From positions 63-64,062 of the forward strand of contig JACZYG010000015.1 in NCBI GenBank assembly GCA_022571215.1: a DNA stretch of 64,000 nt. The letters are read 5' to 3'. Under the pieces are notes generated by a model, which saw only the letters and a list, made by a program, of their open reading frames with translations, was not told the origin of the DNA and made no database searches. Positions 2,888 to 48,430 of the stretch are shown piece by piece; the stretch's first letter is position 1, and each line of letters starts with the position of its first letter. The translations under genes were made by a program, and so were the position numbers. Source of the stretch: Fidelibacterota bacterium (GTDB taxonomy: Bacteria > Fidelibacterota > SORT01).

Positions 2888-2949
2888 TATACAGCTGCTT
2901 TCTTAATATTCAGTTTTTAAAGTAACAGATCCGAACCGGCATGACGATT

Positions 2950-7033: not shown

Positions 7034-8365
7034 ATGAAATCACTGAAAATCACGCTCGTTCTTTTATTATCGCTATCAACGCAGGTTGTCGCTTTATCTC
7101 AAGAAAGAGGAAAAATAACCAGAGAACGGGGCGAATTTATTGAAACGATCGACAAAACTTACAAAGTAAAAAAAGGAGGTTCGCTTTTTCTCAGCTCCGA
7201 CCAGGGTCCTATCTATGTTGAAACATGGTTTGAGGATAAAGTGCGTGTTGTTGTAATCAAGAGGGCTGACGTTAGAAACGAGTCGCGCGCTGAAGAGATA
7301 TTCGAAGAGATTGAGGTAACCATAACCAAATCGGGCAAAGACGTTACGGTCAAGGCTAGAACGCCATGGAGGCGAAGAAAAAGAAGTTCCGTCCTCTCTT
7401 TTGAAATTACCGTACCATATAAATATAACGTGGATGTTGAAACCGACGGCGGCAGCATACGAATAGCTGATCTTGAAGGCAACCTAAACGCGGAAACTGC
7501 CGGTGGCAGTATTAAAGTCGGGCAAATATCGAATGGTGACCTAAATGTTGAGACTGCGGGCGGCAGCATCAAGATAGTTGGGATTAAAAATGGCAACGGA
7601 ATAGCAAGTACAGCAGGCGGCAGCATAAAAGTAGGCGATGTATCCGGTGATCTTAAAGTTCATACTTCCGGCGGCAGCATCGAATTGGGCATAATCGGAG
7701 GCAAAGCGAAGGCTCATACTTCCGGTGGCAGCATTAAGGTCAAGGAAGGCGGCATTGACTTAGACGCCTCCACTTCCGGCGGAAGCATCTCTGTTAATTA
7801 CGCAAACGGTCCCGTGAAAGTTCGCACGTCCGGCGGAAGCATTTCCATTGGCGACACAAAAGGTGATATTGACGCAAGTACAGCCGGAGGGAGTATCCAC
7901 ATAGGTGAATCCGGCGGTCGGGTCAACGCAAGCACTGCCGGCGGCGGCATAAGCGTCGAAGGTTCGCAAGGACCGGTAATAGTTGAAACAGCCGGCGGAA
8001 GCATAGAAATCACCAATGCCCGGGGATTCATAGAAGCGGTAACAGCGGGTGGAGATGTGGAAGCTGAACTGATCGTCAGCGACAAGAATATAGATACTCA
8101 TGTCACTCTTGAAACAGCCGGAGGAGATATAACGCTCTATCTTCCCGCCGAACTCTCAGCCACTTTTGATGTTGAACTTGAGATTACACGTCGCGCCTGG
8201 AGAGATTACAAGATATATTCGGATTTTCCGCTTAGCATAAGCGACGATGCTGATGGGTGGCGAGGAAATAAAATCATAATTGCCGAAGGTGATATAAACG
8301 GCGGTGGTGATAAGATCAAAATAAGAACTAAGAACGGTGATATTCGTATCAAAAAGATCAGATAA
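7034..8365 (+). CDS. DUF4097 (putative adhesin / LiaG-like beta-helix) repeat protein
   Basis: Signal peptide; more than 14 tandem ~20-aa repeats of (E)T(A/S)GGSI(K/E/S)V...; sits directly downstream of the sigma/anti-sigma pair, as LiaG-like genes do. Confidence 0.7.
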   Translation: MKSLKITLVLLLSLSTQVVALSQERGKITRERGEFIETIDKTYKVKKGGSLFLSSDQGPIYVETWFEDKVRVVVIKRADVRNESRAEEIFEEIEVTITKSGKDVTVKARTPWRRRKRSSVLSFEITVPYKYNVDVETDGGSIRIADLEGNLNAETAGGSIKVGQISNGDLNVETAGGSIKIVGIKNGNGIASTAGGSIKVGDVSGDLKVHTSGGSIELGIIGGKAKAHTSGGSIKVKEGGIDLDASTSGGSISVNYANGPVKVRTSGGSISIGDTKGDIDASTAGGSIHIGESGGRVNASTAGGGISVEGSQGPVIVETAGGSIEITNARGFIEAVTAGGDVEAELIVSDKNIDTHVTLETAGGDITLYLPAELSATFDVELEITRRAWRDYKIYSDFPLSISDDADGWRGNKIIIAEGDINGGGDKIKIRTKNGDIRIKKIR

Positions 8366-8881: not shown

Positions 8882-10117
8882 TTAAAGCGCTTTGGCGCTC
8901 ATCTCTTTGGCGACCATCGCTATCTTCTGCTGCGCTTCGATAGATGTAAAGCATTCGAGCGCTTTGCCGTAATCAACTTCAGCCTGTTCCGCGTCTTTCG
9001 TCTCTCTGTGCAGACGCGCTATCTCAAGGTGGGTCTCGCCCTTATTGAGGGAGTTGTCGTGACGCTCGTTGATCCTGAGTGAGTTGCCAAGATAGACCTC
9101 GGCAAGGTCGAACCTGCCGTTCTTCTTATGGTTCATGCCCATAAGCTTGTAAACCTCTGCTACGCCGAGCCTGTCCTTCATCTCACTGAATATCTTGAAT
9201 GCCTTGGTGGCAAGAAGAACAGACTCGTCTATCTCGTTCTTCTTATGATAGATCTCTGCCTTCTCCAGGTAAGAGAGACCGGCGATACGTTCGTCGCCCG
9301 CGCGCTCGGAGAACCTGAGACCGTCATCAAGTTTACGCTCCGCCGCTTCAAGGTTGCCCTTGTTCTTATAGGCGATGCCGATATTATGATGTATCAGAGC
9401 TCTCAGAGGATCGTTGTTCATGTTGCCGAGTGTCTTGAGAGCAGAGTTGTAAGACTCCAGGGCGCTGTCATGGTCGCCGCGGATATTGAGTATGTTGCCG
9501 AGGTTCATGTAGATCTTGAGCAGAAGTTCACGATCCTTGTTCGCTACGGCTAACTTCTTGGATGATTCAAACGACTCTAACGCGTTAGAGAGTCTGCCCG
9601 TCTCGGCATAAAGAATACCAAGTGTGTTGAGGGTAGCGGATAACGCTTTGGTGTCACCCGAGTCTCTTAAGTATGACTCTGCCGTGTTGAACTCCTCAAG
9701 AGCTCTCGACCAGTTAGCCTGCTTGGCGAATATCTCGCCTAAGAAGCGGCTCGCGGAACCCTTGAGACTCTTGTTCGTCTCGCTGTCGGGACGACTCTTG
9801 ATCTCGTCTAAAAGGTTCATCGCGCGGTCAAACTGATTAGCGGCTATAGACGCTTCCGCTATCGCTAACAGCAACGCGTCATAAGAATCTCCGCTTAACT
9901 GTTCCTGTGATACGCTTAAGATGATTTCAAATTTGGTGTCTATGGTAAGGTTGCTACGGTCATTCTTGGTAAGGTCTGTCGGTAGGATAGTCCGCCATGT
10001 CTCTCGCAGCCCGGTTTCGTTACTCTTAAGAAGCTTCGTAACCTTCCGGCTGAAACCTCTGCCGCAAGCCTTAGAAGCGATCTTTAAAACGTCTGCTGTG
10101 AAAGTCTCGGTAGCCAT
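8882..10117 (-). CDS. tetratricopeptide (TPR) repeat protein
   Basis: Multiple 34-aa TPR-like repeats (..A...Y..A..L...G....A...Y..AL); 411 aa; no signal peptide. Confidence 0.7.
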   Translation of the reverse strand: MATETFTADVLKIASKACGRGFSRKVTKLLKSNETGLRETWRTILPTDLTKNDRSNLTIDTKFEIILSVSQEQLSGDSYDALLLAIAEASIAANQFDRAMNLLDEIKSRPDSETNKSLKGSASRFLGEIFAKQANWSRALEEFNTAESYLRDSGDTKALSATLNTLGILYAETGRLSNALESFESSKKLAVANKDRELLLKIYMNLGNILNIRGDHDSALESYNSALKTLGNMNNDPLRALIHHNIGIAYKNKGNLEAAERKLDDGLRFSERAGDERIAGLSYLEKAEIYHKKNEIDESVLLATKAFKIFSEMKDRLGVAEVYKLMGMNHKKNGRFDLAEVYLGNSLRINERHDNSLNKGETHLEIARLHRETKDAEQAEVDYGKALECFTSIEAQQKIAMVAKEMSAKAL

Positions 10118-10236
10118 AACTATCTAACCGTGCTCCCCGTTGTCAATGAAATGATGGACGCGGTAAGTATCATTGTCAATGATAACAGTTCGCTCATGTC
10201 GCTTACCTTATATGCCGTAAGATTCAACATCTTACC

Positions 10237-10830
10237 TTAGTATGCCCATCCGTAACGTGTGAAATGATTGATGTAGAATACGAGTGTCTTTTCCTCTTCG
10301 TTTACAGTGTACTCTACTACCTCACCACCCGTACCGTCATCTAATATGAAGTAGACCTGTATCAGGTAGGGATCACCGTCAAAACCAAGAGCATCATAAT
10401 TCAACGTGACCTTTACATCGGTGTTGAATGTTATGCTCGGTAAGAACTCTACCTCGGCTGAACAGGGATTCTTTCCATCCATACAGGTTACCTGTACCGA
10501 TATCGTTGTGTTGTCGTCAACCGCTCCGGCAGGTATCTCTACCGTGTTGCCAAATGTCTTCTGACCGCCGACCGAACCACCGGCGCTAACCGTGATCGTC
10601 TTCTCCGCCACATTTGATTTGTTGAGCGCAGTCAACTTCGCCATTGATTTCGGGCTCCACTTTAGAAAGTTCACACCTTCTAATGATGTAGCCGCTCCTG
10701 CTACCGAAGCAGATGTCTTAGCCGATTCCGGCGCCGTCGTCGCTGCGTAATCGCAAGCAACGCTCAGCAACATCGCTACTACTGTTAACGGTAAAAGCAG
10801 GTTTCTGAAGTGCTTTCTGCTTGTATTCAT
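10237..10830 (-). CDS. hypothetical lipoprotein
   Basis: The predicted ORF extends to 10926, but the likely start is the internal Met (MNTSRKHFRNLLLPLTVVAMLLSVAC), which gives a signal peptide plus lipobox; beta-rich C-terminus. Confidence 0.45.
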   Translation of the reverse strand: MNTSRKHFRNLLLPLTVVAMLLSVACDYAATTAPESAKTSASVAGAATSLEGVNFLKWSPKSMAKLTALNKSNVAEKTITVSAGGSVGGQKTFGNTVEIPAGAVDDNTTISVQVTCMDGKNPCSAEVEFLPSITFNTDVKVTLNYDALGFDGDPYLIQVYFILDDGTGGEVVEYTVNEEEKTLVFYINHFTRYGWAY

Positions 10831-11043: not shown

Positions 11044-11631
11044 TTAATTCCCGTTCAAACCGAGTAAAATCGTTACTTCTTCTTTTAATTCTGAAAGTTT
11101 AAAAGGTTTTTTTAAATATTTTGATACACCGATGTCCATAAGTTTCTTCTCCGTTTCCTCATTCAGAGTGGAAGAAACCACCATAATTTCTGCAGATTTG
11201 TAATCATCAGTATCTTTCACCCTCTTGATCACCTCATATCCATCGATTTTTGGCATGTTTAAGTCTATTATTAACAGATTTGGAACCGAGTTTCCTATCT
11301 TCATAAGACCATCATAGCCGTCTGTGGCTGTATCTACCTTGAGATCACGGTTGAGACTCTCGAGGGTAAGGACAATAGTTTTTATCATTCCGGGATCGTC
11401 ATCTATAACGAGCACTTTTAATTCTGTACTGCCTAAAATTGACTCGTCGATAGGCATATGGTTTTCTTTCAAAAAGCTGATAAAATCACTTTTTGTAACC
11501 TTAAAATGACCCATAGGAGTCTGAAAACCTGAAAGGTGACCTTCTCGTATCCACCGTTTCACGGTAGTAACGTTTACCTCGCAATAACCCGCTATATCCC
11601 CCGTTGATAAGTATTTTTTGTCCATCATCAT
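11044..11631 (-). CDS. response regulator with N-terminal excisionase/MerR-type HTH and C-terminal CheY-like receiver
   Basis: N-terminus YLSTGDIAGYCEVNVTTVKRWIREGHL (excisionase-family HTH); C-terminal receiver (VLVIDDD..., DLNMPKIDGYEV, phospho-acceptor Asp context). Confidence 0.75.
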   Translation of the reverse strand: MMMDKKYLSTGDIAGYCEVNVTTVKRWIREGHLSGFQTPMGHFKVTKSDFISFLKENHMPIDESILGSTELKVLVIDDDPGMIKTIVLTLESLNRDLKVDTATDGYDGLMKIGNSVPNLLIIDLNMPKIDGYEVIKRVKDTDDYKSAEIMVVSSTLNEETEKKLMDIGVSKYLKKPFKLSELKEEVTILLGLNGN

Positions 11632-11932: not shown

Positions 11933-14413
11933 ATGTTATCCCTACCTAAATTTGCTCGAATAACCGTCTTCTCGGTTGTAGCTTTTATCACCGTTTTCCT
12001 TGCTACTATTAACTCAGGAAGGTTATCCGATTGGCCGCAAGTCGGCGCGGTGTTTTCTTTCGAAAACAAGCAGGCTGTTGTCCTTGAAATCAATGAAAAC
12101 GAGAAAGACATAAGAATTGGGGACACCTTACTCTCCATAGACGGGAATAGTGTTGATAATAAATTCAATTTATTAAGAGAGTTATGGGCGAAACCTCTTA
12201 CAACCGAAAGAACTTTCCTCATCAAACGCAATGGAGAGACGCTCTCACTGTATATAACGCTCAGGAATCGTTTTTCGAACACGGAAATAATCCTTAGAAT
12301 TCTTTTAGCAGCGCTGTTATTGGCGTTAGGTATGTTTATTTTTTACAAACGTATGTTGATCCATTCTGTCCGCAATCTGTCGTATATATTTATGCTTCTC
12401 GCGTTCTCTGTGAGTGTACCCATAAGTGAGCGTTCGGGGATTGACCTGTTCAGTATAGTTATTCCTTTATGGTGGTCGGTACTCTTTGCTATGATTCCTC
12501 CCATAACTCTGAATTTTGCTCTACGGTTTCCCTATAAAAAGGAAATACTAAAAAAGCGGCCTTATATCGCTTTTCTAATTTATCTGCCTACCGTGATTTT
12601 CATTCCCATTCTTTTATCCGCGCTCCTTGAAGGAGGTCTTTATCAGGAACTCGTAGCCTATCCTCTGTATGACATAACTTATAAGCTGTTCACCGGCTAT
12701 ATGCTCATTTACATACTGATCGCTTACTTTATTTTATTCAAGGTCCTGCGTAATCCGATGGAAAGAAAGCAGAAGATGCAGGTACTTTGGTTTATCTACG
12801 GGTCCGCTGTCGGTCTATTTCCATATTTGTTTCTGCGTGTATTACCTAAAATATTAGGATTCGAAACTCTTATATCGTGGGAAGTGGTTCTTCTGACGCT
12901 ATTTGCGGTGCCGATTTCGTGGGCTATTTCCGTCTTTGGCTACCAGCTCTTCGACGTCGAAGTCGTCATCAACAGAAGTTTAGTCTATTTCACCGTGTTA
13001 TCCTCTCTCGTAACAGTATATATAATTATAATTTATCTTTCTTCCTTATATTTAGGCACTTTTTATGATCTGAATGACAGGATGTTCACGACTCTGACCA
13101 TCGTTGGAGCCGCGTTGTTGTTTGAGCCGGCGCGAAGAAGGATACAATATCTCATAGACAGATTCTTTTACCGCGATTGGTACAGCTATCGAAACACACT
13201 CCTTCAACTCGGCAGACAGCTCTCCTCTATCTCAGACCCACACGCTCTTTACGCGGAATTAGTCAAACAACTTGTTGAAATACTTTATCTTCACAACGCT
13301 TTCTTTTTTGAACTTATAGAGGAAAAACCGGGTAACATTCACACCTTCCGTCTTTCTACGGCTCAAGGCTTGACCGAAGAAGAGATTTCGAGCAGTGACA
13401 ACCTAAGCGGCGGTATTGATTTAGAGATGTCTTCACCGATAATGACACGGTTCGTCGAGAAATTAGATCCGATACATGTTGACCAGATTTGGATATTTCC
13501 CGATCTGCCCGAAGGCTTAAAAGCGCTTCGCCGGGATATGGACAATTTCCACTCTCAGCTGTTTGTGCCTATCGCGCTCAACAATAAGCTGATAGGCATT
13601 ATGTGCTTAGGGAAAAAACGTTCCGGCGCGAGCTTCTCTTTCAAAGACATTCAGCTGCTGAAATCGCTGCAACACGAAGTAAACATAGCCTTGAAGAACT
13701 CGGACCTCATTCGGGGTCTTATCGAAGCTGAACGACTCGCATCTCTTGGCGAAATGTCCGCGAAGATAGCCCATGAAATAAATAACCCGCTCACCGTTAT
13801 AATAATGAACGCTCAATTGGAGCTTGAAAAGGAGCAAAACTCGGCAATGAGCGACACTCTTAATCTTATCGTCAAACATTCTAAAAATATAAAGGAATTG
13901 ACCAGAGGTTATATGAACCTCGGCAAATCCGTAGAATTTGAAAAGAAAAACTTGCTTCTCAGCGAGGTACTACACGCTACGGTTAATTCATTAAAGCCGC
14001 TCGGACAACTTAAATATGTAACTTTGGAAGAATCCTATGCCGACGGTGAACCGGAAGTTTTTGCTGATTTTTCAAGCCTCGAGCAAGTATTCAGGAATCT
14101 TTTGCTGAATGCGGTTCACGCTTCAGCCGCTAATCCGATGAGGAAAATAGTCGTCGGCGTTAATCCCTTTGAAAATGGTGAATTTGTTGAGGCTTTTGTC
14201 TCTGATAACGGTACCGGGATCGAGCCCGAAATAATCGGTAAGATTTTTGACCAATATTTTTCCACCAAAAAAGAAGATATGGGCACCGGACTCGGTCTTT
14301 CTGTTGTCAAAGAGATAATCGAGACAGTTCACAATGGTAAAATATCCGTTGAATCCGAGATCGGTAAAGGAACCGTGTTCAAAATACTGCTTCCGGCGGT
14401 AAGTCCGGCATAA
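11933..14413 (+). CDS. sensor histidine kinase: periplasmic PDZ-like domain, multi-TM (7TMR-DISM-like), GAF, HisKA, HATPase_c
   Basis: N-terminal TM and PDZ-like segment (GDTLLSIDGNSV...), about 7 TM helices, H-box AHEINNPLTVI, N/G1/G2 boxes (NLLLNAVHA, DNGTGI, GTGLGLS). Confidence 0.85.
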   Translation: MLSLPKFARITVFSVVAFITVFLATINSGRLSDWPQVGAVFSFENKQAVVLEINENEKDIRIGDTLLSIDGNSVDNKFNLLRELWAKPLTTERTFLIKRNGETLSLYITLRNRFSNTEIILRILLAALLLALGMFIFYKRMLIHSVRNLSYIFMLLAFSVSVPISERSGIDLFSIVIPLWWSVLFAMIPPITLNFALRFPYKKEILKKRPYIAFLIYLPTVIFIPILLSALLEGGLYQELVAYPLYDITYKLFTGYMLIYILIAYFILFKVLRNPMERKQKMQVLWFIYGSAVGLFPYLFLRVLPKILGFETLISWEVVLLTLFAVPISWAISVFGYQLFDVEVVINRSLVYFTVLSSLVTVYIIIIYLSSLYLGTFYDLNDRMFTTLTIVGAALLFEPARRRIQYLIDRFFYRDWYSYRNTLLQLGRQLSSISDPHALYAELVKQLVEILYLHNAFFFELIEEKPGNIHTFRLSTAQGLTEEEISSSDNLSGGIDLEMSSPIMTRFVEKLDPIHVDQIWIFPDLPEGLKALRRDMDNFHSQLFVPIALNNKLIGIMCLGKKRSGASFSFKDIQLLKSLQHEVNIALKNSDLIRGLIEAERLASLGEMSAKIAHEINNPLTVIIMNAQLELEKEQNSAMSDTLNLIVKHSKNIKELTRGYMNLGKSVEFEKKNLLLSEVLHATVNSLKPLGQLKYVTLEESYADGEPEVFADFSSLEQVFRNLLLNAVHASAANPMRKIVVGVNPFENGEFVEAFVSDNGTGIEPEIIGKIFDQYFSTKKEDMGTGLGLSVVKEIIETVHNGKISVESEIGKGTVFKILLPAVSPA

Positions 14414-16321: not shown

Positions 16322-16480
16322 GCGGTAACTTAACGGTTTTTCACTTTGACGGCAAGAAATTCATGCGGGTCGGAATTTTTACAATCCCGCCTTAGGCGGC
16401 GACAGACTTACCGTGCTCACAAGTCAACCACCCCTGCCTCTTCGAGGCTTCCCCTCCTTAAAAAGGAGGGGGAAAGTCAC

Positions 16481-16530
16481 CGTCATTGCGAGACTTAATT
16501 CATTAGGTCGAAGCAACCTTATAATCGCAA
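16481..16530. repeat. MITE-like palindromic element, GTCATTGCGAG family (short copy)
   Basis: gtcattgcgag ... aatcgcaat inverted termini; shares a core with copies at 23311, 33112, 36576, 41635, 55451 and 55757. Confidence 0.6.
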
Positions 16531-16602
16531 TACAGAAAGACCCGAGTTTACTTCGTCGTTTCTCTCCTCGTAAAGACGGCACATTATACCACTCTTAATA
16601 CG

Positions 16603-16720
16603 CCCTGACCGCACTCACGAGTCAACCACCCCTGCCTCTTCGAGGCTTCCCCTCCTTCAAAAGGAGGGGAAAATAATGCTCCGCAGGAGCGGGCCTGCCC
16701 GACTAATGTCAGGCGGGGGA
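16603..16720. repeat. composite intergenic repeat (gccctgaccgcac module, CCCCTCCTT hairpin, gcctgcccgactaatgtcaggcggg module)
   Basis: The same modules recur at 16400-16475, 41834-41880, 48623-48680, 55665-55815 and 8684-8712. Confidence 0.6.
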
Positions 16721-16816
16721 TATTATCTATCGGTAATTTCTAATTTAACCAAATAGGATAAATCACACCCCTCGTCCGTCAGATGACGGACACTTCCCTC
16801 AAGGGGAGAGGTTGAT

Positions 16817-16852
16817 CGTCTTTGCGAGGATTGGACTCCTCGCAAAGACACG
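16817..16852. repeat. perfect hairpin of the GTCTTTGCGAGGA family
   Basis: cgtctttgcgagga ttgg actcctcgcaaagacacg. Confidence 0.6.
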
Positions 16853-16963
16853 GAACTGAGCTCGGGTCTTGCCCTGACCGCACTCATAAAACAACCTCCC
16901 ACATTTCCCTTGATTACACCACTTCTTCCTTAGTATCATACTATTCACTCATCGTTTGAATCG

Positions 16964-19825: not shown

Positions 19826-19914
19826 CGATTTATTAGGCTCATCTACGAGCCAGAATTTGCAACGAAGTTCCTACGGAGCAAAGACAGGTATAGGTGAGGC
19901 TGCCTGCATTATGT

Positions 19915-20004
19915 AACTCTTGACACACCCCGCCCTTCGGGCACCCCTCTTAATAGAGGGGTGGATTCGAATCCAAAGGATGAGAAGACGGGGTGTGTCA
20001 AGAG
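19915..20004. repeat. about 90-bp composite hairpin element (module B: CACCCCTCT-loop-AGAGGGGTG with long outer arms)
   Basis: ctcttgacacaccccg...cacccctcttaatagaggggtg...cggggtgtgtcaagag; partial copies at 22125, 23497, 25511, 25948 and 48431. Confidence 0.65.
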
Positions 20005-20140
20005 TTGAAGATTAACGTCATTGCTAAAAACAGACTACACTGATAAATATTTAGTCGTTTCCAATTTGCGCGTTTAATAGTACATTCTACATTAAACGCA
20101 CTACTCGCAATTAAATAGAATTCAAAACGGAGGCAACACC

Positions 20141-21928
20141 TTGAAAAGAAGACTCACTATTTATTCAGCGCTACTTGCGCTTTTAACACTCTCATGTTCT
20201 GCTGAGGTCATAACGGATGACGCAACACAGGAGAATCCCGCTGTCGCCGAGCTTCACCGACTCTTTGATGACGATTGGGAACTGACACTGATAGAGAATC
20301 CTATCTTTGCGACTATGCTCGGAGACAAGCGTTACAGTGATAGGCTATCAGTTGTTTCTGTCGCTCACAGCGAAGAGCTCAATCAGATAAACAAAGAGTT
20401 TCTTGCGCGTTTGGAAGCGATAGACCGCTCCGCCCTCCCTAAGAACGAAAAGCTGAACTACGACATCTATAAGCTGCTGACCGAAGACGCGGTTGAGAGC
20501 GCTGAATTCAAATCCTACCTCCGACCGATAACGAATAGAGGCGGATTTCATATTTCTTTTCCGGAACTGCCTAACAGGATTCCCCTGAACAATGTAGAGG
20601 ATTACTCGAACTATATCGCTCGTCTGAATGCGTTCAAGGAATATACCGAATCACATATCGCGGTGATGCGTGTCGGAATGGAAGGCGGATACGTCCTTCC
20701 CAAGATAGTTCTTGAGGGCGCCGAGGAGACCATCGAACCGCACATAGTCACCGACGCAACCGAGTCCCTTCTTTACAAACCATTTGAAAAATATCCGAAA
20801 GGAATAGATGAATCCGATCAAGCGCGGTTGACCGGAGCGGGTGTGGACGCTATCATGAACTCGGTCGTTCCCGGTTATAAATTGTTCCTCGATTTCATGG
20901 AGAACGAATATCTGCCCGCATCAAGCGATGAGATCGCCGCTTCCTCCCTGCCGAACGGAAAAGCGTATTACGAATATCGCGTCCGCTCCTTCACCACTTT
21001 AGACGTGACACCGCAGGAGGTTCACGACAGAGGACTGTCGGAGGTCGCGCGTATCCGAGCCGAGATGGACGAGGTTATCAAAGAATCAGGGTTTGAGGGA
21101 GATTTCAAAGCGTTCGTTGAATTCCTCCGCACCGATGACCAATTCTACGTTGACTCGCCCGAACAACTTATGAAGGAAGTCGCCGTCGTTCTTAAAAAAA
21201 TGGACGGGCAACTGCCGAGCCTCTTCGGGAAGCTGCCGAGGATGCCTTACGGAATAAAAAAAGTGCCGGATTTCATCGCGCCGAAAACAACAACCGCATA
21301 TTATAATCGTCCCTCAGGCGACGGCACGAAGGCGGGCTTCTATTTCGTGAATACGTACGATCTGCGTAGCCGACCGACTTACGAAATTCAGGCTCTCTCT
21401 CTGCACGAGGCTGTACCCGGACATCATCTCCAGATAGCGATTCAACAGGAACTTGAGAACCTGCCGACTTTCCGGCTCTACAGCGGTTTTACGGCTTTCA
21501 CAGAAGGTTGGGCGCTCTACGCCGAACGGCTTGGTCTTGAGGTCGGCTTCTACGAGGACCCTTACTCCGATTTCGGTCGACTGACCTACGAGATGTGGCG
21601 GGCGCTCCGTCTCGTCGTTGATACAGGGATGCACTACTTCGGCTGGTCACGACAGCAAGCCATCGACTATATGGCGGAAAACTCCGCCCTGACTCTACAT
21701 AACATCACCACGGAAGTCGACAGGTACATCTCCTGGCCCGGACAGGCGCTTGCCTACAAAACAGGCGAACTGAAAATCCGCGAACTGCGCGCCCGCGCCG
21801 AAGACAAACTTGGCAAATCTTTCGATGTCCGCGCCTTCCACGATGTCGTCCTCGGAAGCGGCTCCGTCCCACTCATGGTCCTTGAAGCCAATGTGGATGA
21901 ATGGATTGCGAGTGAGATGGGGAGGTAG
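20141..21928 (+). CDS. DUF885-family lipoprotein (putative metallopeptidase-like)
   Basis: Signal peptide plus Cys; conserved DUF885 motif LHEAVPGHHLQ; 595 aa. Confidence 0.75.
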   Translation: MKRRLTIYSALLALLTLSCSAEVITDDATQENPAVAELHRLFDDDWELTLIENPIFATMLGDKRYSDRLSVVSVAHSEELNQINKEFLARLEAIDRSALPKNEKLNYDIYKLLTEDAVESAEFKSYLRPITNRGGFHISFPELPNRIPLNNVEDYSNYIARLNAFKEYTESHIAVMRVGMEGGYVLPKIVLEGAEETIEPHIVTDATESLLYKPFEKYPKGIDESDQARLTGAGVDAIMNSVVPGYKLFLDFMENEYLPASSDEIAASSLPNGKAYYEYRVRSFTTLDVTPQEVHDRGLSEVARIRAEMDEVIKESGFEGDFKAFVEFLRTDDQFYVDSPEQLMKEVAVVLKKMDGQLPSLFGKLPRMPYGIKKVPDFIAPKTTTAYYNRPSGDGTKAGFYFVNTYDLRSRPTYEIQALSLHEAVPGHHLQIAIQQELENLPTFRLYSGFTAFTEGWALYAERLGLEVGFYEDPYSDFGRLTYEMWRALRLVVDTGMHYFGWSRQQAIDYMAENSALTLHNITTEVDRYISWPGQALAYKTGELKIRELRARAEDKLGKSFDVRAFHDVVLGSGSVPLMVLEANVDEWIASEMGR

Positions 21929-22124
21929 GAACAAGTGGGTAATAAATCTTCAGTGGCAGTCAGGACTTGTGAAGTCTCGCCATTGTGGTGGTCCTGACGC
22001 TGTTTGGCATTTTATTGCGGTCAGGATGAATCCTGACTCGCACACGGGAGGGGAATCTAAGGAAAATATTTTTGAAACGTAGGCCGCCTTTTTTAAATGA
22101 GAGTTCCAGGATATTTTCTATTAT

Positions 22125-22192
22125 GAGCACACCCCGTCCTTCGGACACCCCTCTTTTTAGAGGGGAACTTTAATCCCATCTTCGATGGGATA
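22125..22192. repeat. conserved double-hairpin element (hairpin B plus aatcccatcttcgatgggata)
   Basis: gaggggaactttaatcccatcttcgatgggata is 33/33 identical to 48474-48506. Confidence 0.7.
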
Positions 22193-22250
22193 CACGCTGC
22201 TGGGATGAGATGTCAGGCGAGGGGTGTAATCGTTCGGTAACGATAATTTT

Positions 22251-22303
22251 GGAGTGCATTTACTGCGTCAATGCAACATCAACACAGTTGATGTACTCCA
22301 TAT
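22251..22303. repeat. 53-bp nested-palindrome element (ggagtgcat...catcaacNNagttgatg...atgcactcc), copy 1
   Basis: Four copies in the window (22251, 33231, 41904, 50442) at roughly 85-90% identity; each has outer and inner inverted repeats. Confidence 0.8.
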
Positions 22304-22387
22304 ATCACACACTCCATTTTGCCCCGGTGGCAATGCCACACTCAAGGGATGAGGCTTTCCCTGACCCGCACCTTACCGTCTTTCCGA

Positions 22388-22485
22388 ACCTCGATTTATT
22401 GAGGTGAAGGAATCTCAGAACTATCCTCAATCGCAATTATGAGATTGCCGCGTCGCTATGCTCCTCGCAATGACAATCGCAAGCG
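22388..22485. repeat. MITE-like element (ccttgatttat...gaatctcag / gagattgcc ... ctcctcgcaatgac)
   Basis: Related to the copy at 33112-33190 and to the GTCATTGCGAG family termini. Confidence 0.55.
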
Positions 22486-22522
22486 GTCGCAGTACCTATT
22501 CTAACTCGCGCATTGTTAACTA

Positions 22523-23272
22523 TCATCCCTCCCGCGGTTCCCGCCTTTTTAGCATGAGGTAGAGATAGTAAACGGCGAGGGCGGAAAGAATGTGTTTCAG
22601 CGTGTGACCGCTTAGTAGACCATAGTTGACAGAATAGAGCTCCCGGTCGCTTAATTCGGTGAATTTGGAGAGCATGAATAATCCGAACGCGTAAAGCAGA
22701 TAGCGACCGAGCGTGTACCGTCCCTTATACATAAGGAGAACCGCCGTGATGGCAAGGAATGTGACAGATTGCAAATAGATATAAATTCTCAGGTCGTCCG
22801 TGTAGCGCCAATACAAAACGCTGAGCATTCCGATAACCACTGCCGGAACGAGCAAAAACTTTTCGATTTTAGGGTTCACGAACTCTGTCAGCACGGCGCT
22901 GAATAGCCCCATAAATCCTATCATCATAGGCAATCTGTCCCAGACGAGAGCGGCATCGTTAGGGTTCCAATGGTAATATCCGGAACCGAACGAAACGATA
23001 GTGACGCCAGCGAACATCGTTGTCCATGAGTAGCGCGCCTCACTACTGAGATGTGTGATAGCGAAAACGGAACCAATCATTCCGACTATGAAGAATAGAA
23101 GATTCGAGCTGACGTCGAAGAAATTAGGGATGCCGAAGAACGTTCTGTTATCCGCGAAATTGTGATATGGCTGATACTGCTCGATCTCACCGATGAGCAT
23201 CACCGCAATAAGTAAAACGGCGAAGAGCGATAGGAGTATGATGATCTTCTTATGTTCGTCAAGTTCTTTCAA
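22523..23272 (-). CDS. alkaline-ceramidase-like polytopic membrane protein
   Basis: About 7 TM segments; N-terminal motif YHNFADNRTFFGIPNFFDVSSNL resembles bacterial ceramidase-family (PF05875-like) proteins. Confidence 0.45.
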   Translation of the reverse strand: MKELDEHKKIIILLSLFAVLLIAVMLIGEIEQYQPYHNFADNRTFFGIPNFFDVSSNLLFFIVGMIGSVFAITHLSSEARYSWTTMFAGVTIVSFGSGYYHWNPNDAALVWDRLPMMIGFMGLFSAVLTEFVNPKIEKFLLVPAVVIGMLSVLYWRYTDDLRIYIYLQSVTFLAITAVLLMYKGRYTLGRYLLYAFGLFMLSKFTELSDRELYSVNYGLLSGHTLKHILSALAVYYLYLMLKRREPREG

Positions 23273-23310
23273 CTTTTATCAACCCCTAACCCCCACATAC
23301 CATTAATTAC

Positions 23311-23441
23311 CGTCTTTGCGAGACCTGATTTATCAGGGCGAAGCAATCTCAGATTTTGGGGTAGCAGGAAAGAGATGAGATTGCTTTGTCATCCGTCAAC
23401 TGACGGACGAGGGGTGTCATAGCTCGATGACAATAATTCTG
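23311..23441. repeat. MITE-like element, GTCTTTGCGAG family
   Basis: cgtctttgcgagacctgatttatcagggcgaagcaatctcag is about 90% identical to 36576-36618; internal gcaatctca/tgagattgc inverted repeat. Confidence 0.65.
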
Positions 23442-23570
23442 GAAAGAACATCAAAATCACACATCCGTCACTCTGTGCCTCCTCCCTCGAGGGAGGAGGT
23501 TTACACACCCCGCCCGCCAGCCAGACATCGGTCTGGTTGATAGAGGGAAACATTAATCCCCGTTTGTGAA

Positions 23571-25385: not shown

Positions 25386-25456
25386 CTGGGGAACAGGGAT
25401 TCGAACCCCGACCTACGATTCCAGAGACCGCTGTCCTGCCATTAGACTATTCCCCA
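25386..25456 (-). tRNA. tRNA-Gln (anticodon CUG)
   Basis: Folds as a cloverleaf by hand: acceptor UGGGGAA/UUCCCCA with U1-A72 and discriminator G as in bacterial tRNA-Gln; D-stem GUCU/GGAC; anticodon stem GCGGU/AUCGU with loop CUCUGGA; T-arm CGGGG-UUCGAAU-CCCUG. Confidence 0.8.
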
Positions 25457-25575: not shown

Positions 25576-25943
25576 TTCTCAATATTTTTTATCATCCAAT
25601 CGTTTATGACTTCCACAACCGCATTTAAATTCTTTCTTACATCAGAATCCTGAAAGCGCAAAACGGTCAAAGGAATTGATTCCAAAATCTTTTGCCTTTT
25701 CATGTCCTGCTCCTGTTTATATGCATGAGTAATGCCATCAATCTCGATAACTAACCTTAAATCGGGAGAAAAGAAATCAACTATAAAGTTACCAATAGGC
25801 TTCTGCCTATGGAAATCTATTCCCATCAACTTTTTCCCTTTTAATTCATTCCAAAGCAATACCTCAGATAACGTGGAATTTTTTCTCAGCATTCGTGCTA
25901 CACGTTTTAACTTGGGATTATATTTGAGATCAATTTTTACCAT
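25569..25943 (-). CDS. DUF559 (Vsr-like endonuclease fold) domain protein
   Basis: RMLRKNSTLSEVLLWNELKGKKLMGIDFHRQKPIGNFIVDFFSPDLRLVIEIDG is the typical DUF559 core; start placed at the internal Met (MVKIDL) because the 5 upstream codons overlap a repeat module. Confidence 0.65.
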   Translation of the reverse strand: MVKIDLKYNPKLKRVARMLRKNSTLSEVLLWNELKGKKLMGIDFHRQKPIGNFIVDFFSPDLRLVIEIDGITHAYKQEQDMKRQKILESIPLTVLRFQDSDVRKNLNAVVEVINDWMIKNIENS

Positions 25944-25947
25944 GATA

Positions 25948-26018
25948 TAGTTACACACCCCGCCCTTCGGGCACCCCTCTCAAGAGGGGATCTTTTATCC
26001 CATCCTTGATGTGATATA
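25948..26018. repeat. module-B element (left arm plus hairpin plus atcccatccttgatgtgatat hairpin)
   Basis: cacaccccgcccttcgggcacccctct is identical to the 19924 copy. Confidence 0.65.
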
Positions 26019-26031
26019 TAATTCTAAAGAA

Positions 26032-31647: not shown

Positions 31648-33093
31648 TCATTTTCTCTTCCAGAAAGTCCTGCTAAACAATACTATAACGGTAAAAAGTT
31701 CAAGTCTTCCAAGAAGCATACAAAAGTTCAAAAGCAATTTAGCCGCCGCCGGCAGATGGGAATAATTGTCCGTTGGTCCTAAACTCCCGAGGGCGGGACC
31801 AATATTGCCGAGAGCTGACGCGGTTACCGAGACGGCGCTGACTATATCCAACCCCAATCCTGCCATAATAATGCTTACCGCAACGAAAATAGCCATATAA
31901 AATAAGAAAAAACCGAGAACGTTTTTTATAATGTCATCTGATATTATCCGGTCGCCCAATTTAACGGGATAGACAGCGGTCGGATGAACCAGCTTCCTTA
32001 TCTCATATACGGCGTGCTTAAAAAGGATAACCACTCTTATCACCTTCATTGAACCGCCCGTTGAACTTGCGCAAGCTCCTACAAACATCAATGCGACTAT
32101 CAATAATTGTCCTACCGGCAGCCAAAGTTCATAATCCGCGGTTATATAACCGGTTGTGGTCACTATAGAGACTACCTGAAAGAGAGAATGTCTCAATGCC
32201 AATTCGGGGGAGATTGTTTCACTCAGATATACGATTCCGAGAACAATAACGGTGATAACAGAAATTATGCCTAAATAAAATTTGAATTCCTTATCATGTA
32301 TATGCGCTTTGATATCTCCATTGAACATTCGGAAATGAAGAGCGAAATTCGAACCCGCAAGAATCATAAAAAATATTATCACATAATCGAAATATGCGCT
32401 GTTGTAGTGCGCTATGCTCGCATTCTTGGTCGAAAATCCTCCGGTTGCCATCGTACCGAAAGTATGACAGACGGAATCGAAGAGATCCATGCCACCCGCC
32501 CAAAGCATCGTGGCTTCAACAACGCTTATGAGTATGTATGTGATCCATAACAATTTTGCCGTCTCTCTAATCCGGGGAGTAAAACGGTCTTTCGTAGGAC
32601 CGGGCGCTTCCGCCTTGAAAAGTTGTGAAGCCCCTATGCCCAACATCGGTAATATCGCAAGAGAAAAGACTATAATGCCCATCCCTCCGAGCCAATGAGT
32701 CAGAGAGCGCCAGAAAAGTATACCATGAGGTAACGCCTCTATATCGGTGAGAATAGAGGCTCCGGTCGTCGTAAATCCCGACATCGACTCAAAAAATGCG
32801 TCTACCGGAGACTGTATCGCGGAAGACAAGAGAAAAGGAAGCATTCCGAATAAAGCGCTCGTTATCCAGCCGAACGTTACTATGGCGAAACCGTCTCTAA
32901 CCCTGATATCAGAGCCGCCCCGGGTACTTACCCATAGAAGGAATCCTGTACCGATGGTTATTCCCGCCGATAGAAGAATAGCTTTTGTATCACCGTCACC
33001 GTAGTAAATGGAAAAAGGCAGCGCGAGAAGCATTGTTGTCCCGAGGAAGATCCATAACGCCCCGAGAACATTTAATATTTGTTTCAGATGCAT
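31648..33093 (-). CDS. trkH: TrkH/KtrB-family K+ uptake permease
   Basis: Repeated M-P-M segments with selectivity-filter-like MSGFTTTGAS and TTTGY; 481 aa. Confidence 0.9.
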   Translation of the reverse strand: MHLKQILNVLGALWIFLGTTMLLALPFSIYYGDGDTKAILLSAGITIGTGFLLWVSTRGGSDIRVRDGFAIVTFGWITSALFGMLPFLLSSAIQSPVDAFFESMSGFTTTGASILTDIEALPHGILFWRSLTHWLGGMGIIVFSLAILPMLGIGASQLFKAEAPGPTKDRFTPRIRETAKLLWITYILISVVEATMLWAGGMDLFDSVCHTFGTMATGGFSTKNASIAHYNSAYFDYVIIFFMILAGSNFALHFRMFNGDIKAHIHDKEFKFYLGIISVITVIVLGIVYLSETISPELALRHSLFQVVSIVTTTGYITADYELWLPVGQLLIVALMFVGACASSTGGSMKVIRVVILFKHAVYEIRKLVHPTAVYPVKLGDRIISDDIIKNVLGFFLFYMAIFVAVSIIMAGLGLDIVSAVSVTASALGNIGPALGSLGPTDNYSHLPAAAKLLLNFCMLLGRLELFTVIVLFSRTFWKRK

Positions 33094-33111
33094 TTTACAT
33101 ACTCAACCGTA

Positions 33112-33190
33112 GTCATTCCGAACCTTGATTTATCGAAGTGAAAGAATCTCATATTTATCCAATCGGTAGTATGAGATTGCCCGCCTGTCA
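33112..33190. repeat. MITE-like element (gtcattccgaaccttgatttatcgaagtgaaagaatctcat...atgagattgcc)
   Basis: Same architecture as 22388-22485, 23311 and 36576. Confidence 0.55.
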
Positions 33191-33230
33191 GTCGGAGTGT
33201 ATGATCGCCTTTTACGTTAACGGCCCTTTT

Positions 33231-33283
33231 GGAGTGCATTGACTGTGTCAATGCCGCATCAACATAGTTGATGCACTCCATAT
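33231..33283. repeat. 53-bp nested-palindrome element, copy 2
   Basis: ggagtgcattgactgtgtcaatgccgcatcaacatagttgatgcactccatat. Confidence 0.8.
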
Positions 33284-33520
33284 AAAAACACGCCGTCTTC
33301 TCATCCCTTAGGGATTTGAATCCTCCATAGGAGTTCCTTCGGAACACCCCTCTTGATGAGGGAAATTTCTCCTTCCATCCTTTAATAAAGGAAGGAAACG
33401 TCATCGTCAATTTCATATTTTCATGTTGCCTCGGCTCTGATTAAACCAGAGAACTCTATAGTGTATTGCAGTGTTTATCAGGCAGTAGTATAATTCATCT
33501 AAAGTAAAATATTAATATTA

Positions 33521-36546: not shown

Positions 36547-36575
36547 CAGACAATCCCGACACGCTTCCAATTCAC

Positions 36576-36679
36576 TGTCTTTGCGAGAGCTGATTTATCA
36601 GGTCGAAGCAATCTCATGTCCGGTTAAACGATGAATACTGAATTGATTCGGATCAACACTCCTCGCAATGACAATAATC
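36576..36679. repeat. MITE-like element with terminal inverted repeats gtctttgcgagag / ctcctcgcaatgac
   Basis: About 104 bp; internal gcaatctca; its 5-prime half is about 90% identical to 23311-23352. Confidence 0.7.
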
Positions 36680-36732
36680 TACAACTTTTGACACACCTCA
36701 GCCTTATGCTATAAGATTTCTAAAGGATCGGC

Positions 36733-36930
36733 TTTCCCCTCTTAATTAGAGGGGAATTTTTCGCATCAGAGATGCGATGAGTGATTATTACACACTCCGT
36801 CACTTTGAAACCACCCCGTCTTTCGGCTCCGCCTAAATCCACCCCTCCTTCTTAAGGAGGGGATAAATGGGTGCCCCGCTTTCAGCGTGATTAGTCCCGC
36901 ATCGGCGCGGAAATGCACAGGCGGGAGTTG
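36733..36930. repeat. cluster of G/C-rich hairpins (cccctcttaattagagggg; cccctccttcttaaggagggg; gcatcagagatgc)
   Basis: Consecutive palindromes between the GNAT and tolC genes. Confidence 0.6.
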
Positions 36931-38499: not shown

Positions 38500-41400
38500 A
38501 TGAAGAGAGTTATTCGATTTTTTGCCGAACGCCATCTACTTGCCAATTTACTGATAGTTGTTATTCTAATAATTGGTTTAGGTTCTGCCCGAACCATCAA
38601 AAGAAATATGTTCCCATCCGTGGACTTTGGTCAGTTGATGATCACGACCCGCTATCCCGGCGCCTCACCGGAAGATGTTGAACTCAATGTAACGAATCCG
38701 CTTGAAAAGGAACTCAGCAGTGTCGACGGAATAGACCTGATGACATCGTATTCTATGGAGAATATATCAGTGATCAGCATAAACATTGATACTGATGTAG
38801 ATGATAGCGAAAAAGTTAAAAGAGATATCAGAGATGCCGTTAACAGGGTTACGAAATTCCCCCCGGAGGTAACCGAATCACCATATATATTCGAGATTAC
38901 AACTGATAATATAGAAATTATCTGGATCGGAGTTGCCGGTGAAGTGCCTTACCCGGAACTGAGAGAATACGCCAAAGGGTTCAGGAAAAAACTTGAAAAC
39001 GTCAATGGTGTATCTCGTGTTGATGAAAAAGGGCTTCATGACCGCGAGATAAAAGTTGAGGTCTCAACCGCGGCGATTGAGGCATATCAAATTCCACTCA
39101 AAGATTTTGTATCTGCTATCCAAGGACGAAACGTACGCGCTACGGGTGGGTCGTTTGAATCATACACAAGCGATAAGAATATCGTCACGTTGGCTCAATT
39201 CAGAACACCCGAAGAGGTAGGCGAGGTTATAGTCCGTTCAACATTTGAGGGCCCGCATATCACGGTCAACGATCTCGCGACAATTTATGACGGCTTCGAA
39301 CCTGAAAAAGTGCGATTCAGAATGAACGGTAAACAGGCTATCGGATTCACCGTTTTCAAAAAAGGGAATTCCGATATCATCCGTGTAACAGATTCAATAT
39401 TGCAATTGATGGAAGACGAAAGAGATAAAGTTCCTCAGGGAATCGAGCTGCTTCACGCGTCTGAAAAATCACGATTTGTAAAGAACAGACTTAGTATTCT
39501 CGCTAATAACGGAATTATAGGTCTGATATTGGTCAGCGTTGTACTTGTGTTATTCCTTAATTTCACCACCGCTTTCTGGGTAGCGATGGGAATACCACTT
39601 GCCATGTTGAGCGTACTCTTTTTAGCGCCATTTTTTGATGTAACTATTGAACTTATATCGCTGATGGGAATGGTCATAGTCATCGGACTGATAGTGGATG
39701 ATGCCATCGTCATCGCTGAAAACATACACCGGCACCGTGAAAAGGGTAAATCGGCTCTCGATTCGGCAGTTGACGGGGTCTACGGAGTCATTAAACCTGT
39801 CTTTGCTACTATCATCACAACAGCGCTTGCATTCGGAACAATGTTTTTTATGTCAGGTATAATGGGCAAATTTATCGTTTCCATCCCCATCGTTATCATA
39901 CTCGCTTTAGGAGTTTCATTCTTTGAATCACTCATTATTCTTCCATCCCACATTATGAAAGGGATGGAAAAAAGGGAGAAGAAACGGTTGGCGAAGACAG
40001 GCTCAGCTGATAATCCCAATCTTAAAAATGACTGGTTTCACAGGGTAAGAGATAAGTTTCAGCGGTTAATGGCGGCTATACTGTCTTACAGGTACGTCAT
40101 TTTCTTAGTGTTTATAGTTATGTTGATCGGGGCGGTCAGTTTTGCATATCTGCATATGCAATTTATCTTGTTTCCGGGCAATACCGCCGAAAACTTCTTC
40201 ATCACGGTTGAGCTCCCTACAGGTTCCTCTCTCGATGCGACTGAAGACAAGATAAAAGAGATAGAAGCTGTCTTACAAGCTCTGCCTGAAGATGAAATAC
40301 AGTCGCATATGGCAATTCTCGGAAGTCTCGGAGGCGGCGGATTCTTTACACCGGGTGAAAGCGAAAACTGGGCATTCATAATCGTAACGTTGACTCCTTA
40401 TAACGAGCGAAAAAGAAATGCCAACATGATAGTGGCGGATCTTAGGGAGCAGACAGACAAATTAGAAGGTTTCGATGCCGTAAGATATAGGGTAGACGCA
40501 GGAGGTCCTCCCGTCGGTCGCCCGATCGCCATTCGTGTAATTGGCGCAGACAATGATATGAGAACTTCGCTCGCCGATTCTGTGACCGCATATTTAGCGA
40601 GCATCAAAGGCGTTACGGATATTGACAGAGACGATAAACTCGGTAAAGAGCAAGTAGAGATAAAGATTAACTATCAAAGGCTTTCGGAATTAGGACTCAC
40701 AGTTGCCGATATAGCCCAGAACGTCCGGCTCGCATACGACGGACAGGTCGTTACGAGAGTTCGATACGGTGACGAAGATGTCGGTTTCCGCGTCATCCTC
40801 GAAGAATCTACCCGCAACAGACCTGATTACCTTAGCGAGCTGAAGATCCCCAACAGGCGCGGCAGATTGATTCAACTGAAAGAAGTGGCGCAATTTGAAA
40901 TTGGACCGGGTCCCTCCCGTTATTTTCATTACGAGGAGGAACGCACTGTCACTATCACCGCAGACATCGCTTTGGGTGATTTAACACCTCTTCAGGCAAC
41001 TCAAAAAGCCGTCGACCATTTTGATCTCACTACAGACTGGCCCGGTATGCGGTTCGTAATCGGCGGAGAAGCCGAAAAGACACAGGAATCAATCGTCAGT
41101 CTCGGCATTACCATGTTGACGGCTGTGATTGGAATTTACTTTGTTCTGATACTGCTCTTTAACTCCGTGACACAGCCGTTATTAGTTATCATAGCAATCC
41201 CGTTCGGACTCATCGGAGTCATCGCCGCATTCGCAATGCACGGAGAACCGTTAGGCTTCCTGGCAATAATGGGAGTCATCGGTCTTATGGGCGTTGTCGT
41301 GAACGATTCGCTTATACTTGTAAACTATATCAACGTCCATCGTGAATCCGAGCCGGATAAGAACGTCAAGCGGATAGTCGCCGAAGGCACCGCTACGCGC

Positions 41401-41628: not shown

Positions 41629-41634
41629 AGATTC

Positions 41635-41736
41635 TGTCATTGCGAGGAGTCGAAGACGACGCGGCAATCTCAATGCTATCGGTATCACAATTACGAGATT
41701 GCTTCTCCCGATAAATCGGGATCGCAAAGACGATAG
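41635..41736. repeat. MITE-like element, GTCATTGCGAGG family
   Basis: tgtcattgcgaggag...gcggcaatctca...gagattgc...atcgcaaagacgatag. Confidence 0.6.
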
Positions 41737-41903
41737 TTCGTGCGAGTTAGGATTTCAAAACCACGCCATCTGCTGTGGTTCTGACTGCCACAGAATCCTG
41801 ACCAGCACGGTTTTCCTCCCCCTTTGAAGGGGGTGCTCCGAAGGAGCGGGCCTGCCCGACTAATGTCAGGCGGGGGATGTTATTGTTCGGTATCGACAAT
41901 TTT

Positions 41904-41956: not shown

Positions 41957-41981
41957 AATCCTGACTCGCACGCACCCTCCA

Positions 41982-48370: not shown

Positions 48371-48430
48371 TTTCATATTGAAATCAGGGAGGAGGAGACA
48401 CGACACACCCTCCCGATGGATCGGGATAAA

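Follow-up and report, generated by a model that had tools for sequence, protein, structure and literature searches.

A REP-type hairpin doublet in Marinimicrobia and related bacteria, probably served by a RAYT transposase

The window analysed here is a 64-kb stretch of DNA from a Marinimicrobia metagenome-assembled genome (MAG; contig JACZYG010000015.1). Proteins nearly identical to its MurA carry the name Candidatus Marinimicrobia. The window contains four copies of a palindromic element of about 55 nt, in which an outer inverted repeat, termed the foot, encloses two short hairpins. Loci labelled L001-L051 are DNA from other genomes or from metagenome contigs. The four copies in the window are located as follows:

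22248-22302, + strand: copy 1, in which hairpin 1 carries one mismatch (TTTAC) and hairpin 2 closes with a compensated A-T pair; its neighbours are convergent, a DUF885 gene at 20141-21928 (+) and a ceramidase-like gene at 22523-23272 (-)
33228-33282, + strand: copy 2, the perfect example, with foot TGGAGT/ACTCCA, hairpin 1 loop TGT and hairpin 2 loop ATA; it lies in the spacer between trkA and trkH, both on the - strand
41901-41955, + strand: copy 3, between the convergent acrB-like gene at 38500-41628 (+) and murA at 41982-43244 (-)
50441-50495, - strand (inverted): copy 4, between the convergent toast-rack/LiaF-like gene at 49372-50274 (+) and a TPR gene at 50607-51725 (-)

These copies confirm the original prediction of four nearly identical dispersed elements, the last one inverted, with coordinates shifted by 1-3 nt. 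A 49-nt consensus searched with up to 3 mismatches matches the window at 33231-33279 (+), 41904-41952 (+), and 50444-50492 (-), and none of 100 dinucleotide-preserving shuffles contains any match. The diverged copy 1 is grouped with the others by a repeat-family search (family D4, 89% identity, range 76-100%) and is also recovered by an nhmmer profile (E=6e-18). The conserved unit, TTTGGAGTGCATTGACTGTGTCAATGCnGCATCAACAnAGTTGATGCACTCCATA, is 55 nt and thus slightly longer than first noted.

All copies are intergenic, as had been predicted. Three of the four (copies 1, 3, and 4) lie between convergent genes, and Pfam matches of the neighbouring open reading frames (ORFs) identify ordinary chromosomal genes. 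The flanks of the four copies are not paralogous, with the sole exception of a repeat module of about 40 nt, D7 (TGTCAGGCG..GTTCGGTA..AATTT), that precedes copies 1 and 3. D7 abuts copy 1 at 22211-22247 (+) and copy 3 at 41864-41900, and also occurs at 16707-16749 and 23401-23443, where the element is not alongside. The module is an independent neighbour in a mosaic and lies outside the 55-nt element. A segmental duplication with paralogous flanks, which the original prediction had named as its own refutation, is rejected because the flanks are otherwise unrelated.

The outer foot is a 6-bp inverted repeat, TGGAGT/ACTCCA, that encloses two adjacent 19-nt palindromes placed 1 nt apart. Each palindrome is composed of an 8-bp stem and a 3-nt loop. 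Hairpin 1 is GCATTGAC-TGT-GTCAATGC, its loop being YGT over the family, and hairpin 2 is GCATCAAC-AnA-GTTGATGC. The nested palindrome first described is thus right in substance and is better parsed as a foot around two separate palindromes. The foot has the consensus TGGAnT-GC, in which T3, G4, G5, A6, and T8 are invariant over all copies.

Apart from four transitions, the right half of the element equals the left half reverse-complemented. These transitions turn the stem core TTGA into TCAA while each half stays self-complementary. Because the halves are mutually inverted and each is self-complementary, the element is an inverted doublet of one unit of about 25 nt with its feet outward. The unit consists of a 6-nt foot (TGGAnT), an 8-bp stem, and a 3-nt loop. 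Unit 1 is on one strand and unit 2 on the other, so that the two feet face outward and pair together. Solo half-units, each a foot with one hairpin, are present at 10666-10812 of L035 and 9729-9756 of L032, beside genes for transposases associated with repetitive extragenic palindromes (REPs). They support the unit of about 25 nt as the basic module.

The folding of the element was evaluated by covariation in an alignment of 22 distinct copies. One nucleotide of a 2-nt linker was taken out by hand in two copies from TA06, so that the alignment keeps its 55 columns. Neither structure model pairs the linker column, and the edit therefore affects no pair. In an earlier set of 24 copies the two folds described below ranked in the same order. 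In a model with two hairpins and a foot, 95.2% of cells are paired, and compensatory double changes affect 11 of the 22 pairs, with 32 cells involved. These values are not reached in any of 500 column shuffles, and slid controls reach 25-43% paired cells. A model with one long hairpin pairs 90.1% of cells and has 7 compensated pairs. It fails exactly where hairpin 2 covaries with itself. Covariation therefore favours the two-hairpin fold over one long hairpin.

Examples of compensated stems are GCTTTAAC/GTTAAAGC in L036, GCAATGAC/GTCATTGC and GCAACGAG/CTCGTTGC in TA06, CCATCAAC/GTTGATGG in L009, and ACATCAAC/GTTGATGT in copy 1 of the window. Stem changes tend to be parallel in both hairpins, such as T to A at stem position 4 in TA06. 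The loops also covary: columns 17 and 39 are U-A in 12 copies and C-G in 8, so both units, each read on its own strand, carry the same YGT loop, which for hairpin 2 is ACR on the element strand. Parallel stem changes together with loop covariation form the pattern expected if one protein reads both units. The hairpins are under selection.

As single-stranded DNA (ssDNA, folded with DNA parameters), the element adopts a Y-shaped two-hairpin form in all seven stretches folded, with energies of -12 to -19 kcal/mol and z scores of -4 to -8. The seven comprise the element strand of the four window copies, the complement of copy 2, one TA06 copy, and one copy from L036. Folded as RNA, the + strand favours a single long hairpin containing G-U pairs (-23 to -30 kcal/mol, z -4 to -8), and the opposite strand takes the two-hairpin fold for copy 2 and a long bulged hairpin for the other three copies. 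The element was originally proposed to form a long imperfect stem-loop or a cruciform. Its capacity to form hairpins is borne out, and both covariation and the ssDNA folds point to a Y-shaped pair of short hairpins in place of one long stem-loop.

The strong RNA fold raises the alternative that the element is conserved chiefly for a role as structured RNA, whether as a stabiliser of 3' UTRs, a terminator, or a small RNA, its association with transposase genes being secondary. Three of the four window copies are between convergent genes and so in likely 3' UTRs, and E. coli REPs are known to influence the 3' ends of mRNAs. The G-U pairs of the long hairpin on the + strand, which become A-C mismatches on the other strand, also suit this explanation. 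However, the long hairpin is specific to one strand, and covariation supports it less well than the symmetric two-hairpin fold, the form taken by both strands of copy 2 as DNA. The orientation of the element relative to neighbouring genes is inconsistent. No T-run follows the hairpin on either strand and a terminator scan reports nothing at copies 1-3, for which reason an intrinsic terminator was rejected. The covariance-model check suggested at the outset found no matching Rfam family for the element at the gathering score in the window and six related loci, and at E up to 10 only chance miRNA-like hairpins. A role as RNA would also leave unexplained the arrays that flank and interrupt the transposase genes described next. 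It is highly improbable as the main function.

A link to a protein is provided by L009, a locus from Neomarinimicrobiota. Tandem arrays of the element with a 66-nt period lie on both sides of a - strand ORF, and one more copy is inside the ORF. The encoded protein contains a histidine-hydrophobic-histidine (HUH) motif, NHYH, and a tyrosine motif, YIWYNPVKHG, and matches Pfam Y1_Tnp weakly. With the internal copy removed it has 180 residues, and it has 312 homologues of about 180 residues across the Fibrobacteres-Chlorobi-Bacteroidetes (FCB) group. Named sources among them are Marinimicrobia, Ignavibacteria, KSB1, Zixibacteria, TA06, Cloacimonetes, and others. Five members were scanned, among them the genes of four of the seven loci discussed here, and all pass the NCBIfam equivalog NF047646, "REP-associated tyrosine transposase" (RAYT), at 87-102 bits (cutoff 80). 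Among relatives, a solved structure exists only for E. coli TnpAREP (4ER8).

Seven RAYT loci were examined, L009 and six further ones, and in each of them both gene ends are directly abutted by the element or by a variant whose stem changes compensate one another:

L035, Ignavibacteria: RAYT gene at 10001-10591, elements at 9868-9962 and 10602-10812
L036/37, Marinimicrobia: RAYT gene at 2829-3422, elements at 2703-2820 and 3436-3549 and one inside the gene at 3134-3193
L032-34, FCB group: RAYT gene at 10001-10564, elements at 9729-9875 and 10608-10800
L047, TA06: RAYT gene at 3001-3555, full doublets on both sides
L048, KSB1 type: RAYT gene at 3001-3537, feet and hairpin 2 retained and the other hairpins replaced
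L049-51, metagenome contigs: RAYT gene at 3765-4304 in L049, units with longer spacers between them

The hairpins that border the gene on either side mostly share one orientation and resemble the left and right ends of IS608. The hairpins could accordingly be ends of an autonomous insertion sequence (IS) of the IS200/IS605 type, with the solo copies as derivatives of the kind known as miniature inverted-repeat transposable elements (MITEs) or palindrome-associated transposable elements, and the protein as a self-mobilising transposase, not a domesticated single-copy RAYT. The proteins do belong to the same Y1 HUH superfamily, as their weak Y1_Tnp matches indicate. Against this explanation, all five pass the RAYT model, while the IS200 transposase model gives no match for three of them and 26-27 bits for two (cutoff 55). 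No tnpB/orfB is adjacent in the gene tables of any RAYT locus. Instead of two defined ends, the gene is flanked by arrays that vary, with 2-6 units and half-units. The same protein from different samples keeps the same housekeeping neighbours (L032-34; L049-51), and RAYT conservation across phyla is about that of MurA (52-67% versus 61-65%), which fits a resident gene. An insertion sequence is therefore very unlikely.

The element also interrupts RAYT genes in frame. In-frame copies are found in two loci, at 1837-1891 of L009 and at the position in L036 given above. In-frame insertions are likewise present in the proteins P0001, P0002, P0004, P0005, P0008, and P0017, always after the segment FTALWIKKN. 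They add 18-55 residues, for example ...ESINRVDG..TRL..SK...

Two further features adjoin RAYT genes. Sequences that resemble fused feet without an interior, TTTGGACTCCATA and TTTGGATTCCATA, adjoin the L009 arrays at 2190-2206 and 1573-1588, and one fused-foot sequence supplies the start codon region of the L009 RAYT gene (ATGGAGTCCAAA on the coding strand). The fused feet of L009 could be empty target sites or excision scars. In the window, fused feet (TGGAnT...AnTCCA) give 2 matches against 0.8 expected, which is not significant. In L036 (909-2618) and L037 (83-1481), a cluster that resembles a diversity-generating retroelement, with a bAvd accessory protein and an RVT_1 reverse transcriptase, is immediately upstream of the RAYT gene and its repeat array.

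The element is not confined to the window or to RAYT loci. A scan with a 21-base pattern over one genome per species finds it in unrelated flanks in Marinimicrobia MAGs and single-amplified genomes and in Ignavibacteria MAGs (L001-L009). A looser pattern applied to metagenome contigs returns 20 stretches, most of them chance matches inside genes; only L013, L016, and L019 are true copies. Viral contigs give two chance matches and no true copy. The element is also present at the TA06 RAYT locus (L047), and a looser form at the KSB1-type locus (L048). Its sequence is about 90% conserved across phylum-level groups. The window contains 4 intergenic copies in 64 kb and L038 contains 2 in 21 kb. The Ignavibacteria loci L002 and L005 carry the element at one orthologous site, with an outer-membrane gene on one side and a gene for a SpoU-type methylase on the other, and L016 shares that flank. 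The element has stayed about 95% identical at this site, and the adjoining spacer has diverged.

In L002 and L005 the element is about 30 bp upstream of a gene start. Together with the presence of two 19-bp palindromes with related half-sites, this placement would suit a double operator in duplex DNA, with a dimeric transcription factor or a nucleoid protein attached to the adjacent palindromes. This explanation is extremely improbable. Three of the four window copies are at the 3' ends of convergent genes, and the neighbouring genes share no common functional theme. The stems vary freely as long as pairing is kept (TTGAC to TTAAC, AATGAC, or AACGAG), which is typical of structure recognition and not of base-specific reading of a duplex. 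No regulator gene co-occurs with the element, and RAYT does.

Two other candidates were tried and rejected. Promoters of the sigma-70, sigma-54, and Bacteroidetes types were considered by eye and by a scan; there is no consistent -10/-7 element, and only 9/12 matches arise, from the stem TTGAC. For an integron attC site, CATCAAC/GTTGATG departs from RYYYAAC/GTTRRRY as judged by eye, and the neighbours are housekeeping genes, not cassettes.

We conclude that the element is very probably a REP-type repeat, a compact head-to-head doublet of two REP units of about 25 nt that resembles a REPIN (a REP doublet forming a hairpin) and relies on a RAYT whose gene lies outside the window. It is a short stem-loop palindrome, it directly flanks a RAYT gene in other genomes, and the protein is a RAYT by its family model. 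As in REPINs, the inverted units can be paired into one long hairpin (90.1% of cells paired), the two-hairpin fold being better supported. The dispersed family of REP or MITE type originally proposed is thereby supported and narrowed to the REP class, both by RAYT genes flanked in seven of seven loci and by the unrelated intergenic contexts. It constitutes a previously undescribed family within an established kind of bacterial repeat. Its class is unsurprising to a specialist; the depth of sequence conservation and the foot without GTAG might surprise.

Several observations weigh against this conclusion. The foot contains no conserved GT[AG]G and no CGTC, the tags that nearly all described REP families carry, and its column 7 takes G, A, T, or C. 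The strict 21-base pattern, which misses variants, finds 1-2 dispersed copies per genome in other MAGs, the L009 RAYT arrays aside. This number is below the abundance of classical REPs, which are typically present in tens to hundreds of copies per genome. All RAYT loci were reached from one seed locus, and the seven of seven are a non-random sample of the family. A tblastn search finds no RAYT gene in the window, so the cognate enzyme for its four copies is assumed; the same search finds none in the loci with dispersed copies. Among the relatives L038-L044, there is no clean pair of an empty and a filled site and no gain or loss of a single 55-nt unit. The differences between strains are replacements or expansions of multi-module blocks that extend beyond the single unit.

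A mechanism can be proposed from knowledge of TnpAREP and of IS200/IS605 enzymes (PMC8266576, PMC3479197, PMC6006769). Either strand, once single-stranded, would adopt the Y-shaped two-hairpin structure. By homology, each hairpin with its foot would be a substrate of the cognate RAYT/TnpAREP, a Y1 enzyme of the HUH class that would be encoded elsewhere in the same genome. The enzyme would bind the folded hairpin and the adjacent foot in ssDNA, for example in the lagging-strand template or in transient ssDNA at replication forks, and would cut and rejoin next to the foot by means of its catalytic tyrosine. Such cutting and rejoining would spread copies and maintain them in intergenic spacers. 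Cleavage and rejoining of a ssDNA repeat by a RAYT has been shown only for the enzymes of E. coli, S. maltophilia, and Marinomonas (PMC8266576). For the present element, we infer by analogy the chemistry of ssDNA cleavage and joining, the guide and cleavage nucleotides, a RAYT in the same genome, and any influence on mRNA 3' ends. The molecule that matters is most likely ssDNA recognised by an HUH enzyme, not a stable RNA.

REP/REPIN-RAYT systems, or REPtrons, are known from E. coli, Pseudomonas, and Stenotrophomonas (PMC2817692, PMC3116915, PMC6006769, PMC8266576). The present element shares with them short intergenic palindromes that are dispersed over the chromosome, often at convergent 3' ends, and that form inverted doublets. 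As in these systems, a Y1 HUH gene passing the RAYT model lies between arrays of the repeat and stems are kept by compensatory change (PMC6006769), and repeat and protein appear to co-evolve. The differences are nevertheless considerable. The foot is TGGAnT in place of GT[AG]G. The stems are perfect, with 8 bp and 3-nt loops, whereas the palindromes of REPtrons are long and imperfect or bulged. The spacer between units is 1 nt, compared with the usual tens of nucleotides in REPINs. The stem cores of the two halves are flipped (TTGA versus TCAA), so that each half folds on itself; the flip may exist to force the Y-shaped form over a long REPIN hairpin. Finally, sequence conservation is about 90% over phylum-level groups; a described REP family is normally limited to one species or genus.

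By motif comparison, the RAYT motifs (NHYH, a proline-rich N terminus with HNPPH, and YIWYNP) are closest to TnpAREP subclass 2.8 (PMC6006769). That subclass was confined to Cyanobacteria in the sample of the paper, which notes close relatives in unrelated phyla in the nr database (PMC6006769). In-frame REP insertions in tnpAREP genes are reported for subclasses 2.4 and 2.8, and "double foot" REPs for subclass 2.4 (PMC6006769). The present family resembles these subclasses in the insertions within its RAYT genes, and the element resembles a "double foot" REP. In contrast, the REPs of subclasses 2.7 and 2.8 are long and canonical with a 5' GT[AG]G, and the W motif is WD here and W[YH] there.

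A close structural parallel is found in head-to-head REP heterodimers with 1-2 bp spacers, exemplified by Opitutus terrae GTAG-17 (Di Nocera et al. 2013, PMC3733652). In these heterodimers, as in the present element, the tags face outward, the units are 1-2 bp apart (1 bp here), the partners differ in the stem, and the whole folds as two hairpins or as one long stem-loop (PMC3733652). Intragenic in-frame insertions encoding about 20 residues are a further shared trait (PMC3733652). Most REPs in that survey carry GTAG or CGTC tags, and the present element carries neither (PMC3733652). The IS200/IS605 elements IS608 and ISDra2 likewise present small perfect ssDNA hairpins to a Y1 HUH enzyme, the hairpins left and right of the gene being oriented alike. 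They differ from the present system, in which the protein fails the IS200 model, tnpB is absent, the flanking arrays are variable and multi-copy, and solo copies are dispersed.

The original prediction proposed comparing related genomes for presence and absence of the element. In L038/39, whose MurA is 91% identical, it is present at both orthologous spacers examined, beside different neighbouring modules. The copies in L038 are:

11304-11358: at the site of copy 3
3180-3234: at the site of copy 4

Relative to the adjacent D7-like module, the order of hairpins 1 and 2 in L038 11304-11358 is opposite to that in copy 3 of the window. Such an arrangement would result from a flip of the interior between the feet or from a separate insertion of the element in the opposite direction.

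The element is absent from the short spacers of L040-42 (73-76% MurA identity), which lack all of the modules and span 63 bp from the TPR gene to the toast-rack gene and 100 bp from trkA to trkH. The 63-bp spacer is that of the copy 4 site in L041, whose MurA identity is 76%. In L044, whose DNA is about 98.5% identical to the window, a 216-bp block with copy 2 (window 33185-33400) is replaced by 68 unrelated bp (13329-13396). The murA-acrB spacer of L043 and L044 is longer by about 430 bp, made up of other modules and lying between duplicated modules (L043 11469-11798 compared with window 41794-41891). The spacers are fast-evolving, hypervariable mosaics with turnover at the level of strains.

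The conservation of the repeat across phyla raises the question of the age of the system. It is conceivable, though rather unlikely, that an ancient, vertically inherited REP-RAYT partnership extends across much of the FCB group, in which the repeat sequence itself, beyond its fold, stays about 90% identical because a domesticated enzyme that evolves slowly reads its foot, its stems, and its loops alike. The scope of such a partnership would be at least Marinimicrobia, Ignavibacteria, and TA06, with looser relatives of KSB1 type, and with Zixibacteria and Cloacimonetes represented by RAYT homologues alone. The shared neighbourhoods and MurA-like divergence of RAYT appear consistent with a single-copy, vertically inherited gene. 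Conservation at this level would fit long residence; horizontal transfer is also possible. If the partnership is indeed ancient, this would be by far the most deeply conserved REP family known, and such depth would speak for a function at the level of the host, for instance in structuring the genome or in processing linked to replication, over mere selfish spread.

Work on REPs and RAYTs has been almost entirely in Proteobacteria, with some in Cyanobacteria, and the literature searched contains no mention of RAYT or REP terms together with Marinimicrobia or Ignavibacteria. The present reading would define a REP family and its cognate RAYT clade in uncultured bacteria of the FCB group, and would account for a conspicuous repeat in Marinimicrobia genomes. 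It also provides a signature for annotation, the foot TGGAnT with two 8-bp hairpins, that helps to avoid spurious ORF calls in repeat-filled spacers. The family would be a natural test case for RAYT recognition of perfect short hairpins without a GTAG guide. The deep conservation and the in-frame copies within the RAYT gene could bear on the domestication of RAYTs for a host function.

The long spacers of the window are mosaics of at least ten other families of short hairpin repeats, laid out like bacterial interspersed mosaic elements. They are situated at 16330-16940, 19900-20030, 22000-22520, 23280-23570, 25940-26020, 33094-33520, 36570-36880, 41629-41981, 48020-48610, 50275-50606, and 55360-55770. 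Examples of these families are CCCCTCCTTnAAAGGAGGGG; ACACACCCCGCCCTTCGGGCACCCCTCT..; ACCGTCTTTGCGAGACCTGATTTATCAGG..GAAGCAATCTCA; and GCGGTCAGGAT..ATCCTGACTCGCAC, none of which is related in sequence to the 55-nt element. Some of the other modules are also present in L040 (73% MurA identity), where the element is absent. An ORF of 110 codons at 33084-33416 (-) spans copy 2 and neighbouring repeat modules, and its equivalent in L043 (20286-20606) is called as a hypothetical gene. This ORF is very probably spurious because its block is missing in the strain L044.

The window contains two tRNA genes, at 25386-25456 (-) and 51765-51848 (-), which are its sole Rfam matches at the gathering score. 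Tandem repeats are also found within coding sequence. One array, at 3749-4420 (-), consists of five copies with a period of about 150 nt in the ORF 2950-4722 (-), and the other, at 7477-8011 (+), consists of seven copies with a 54/57-nt period in the ORF 7034-8365 (+). Both look like repeat-domain proteins and are unrelated to the 55-nt element.

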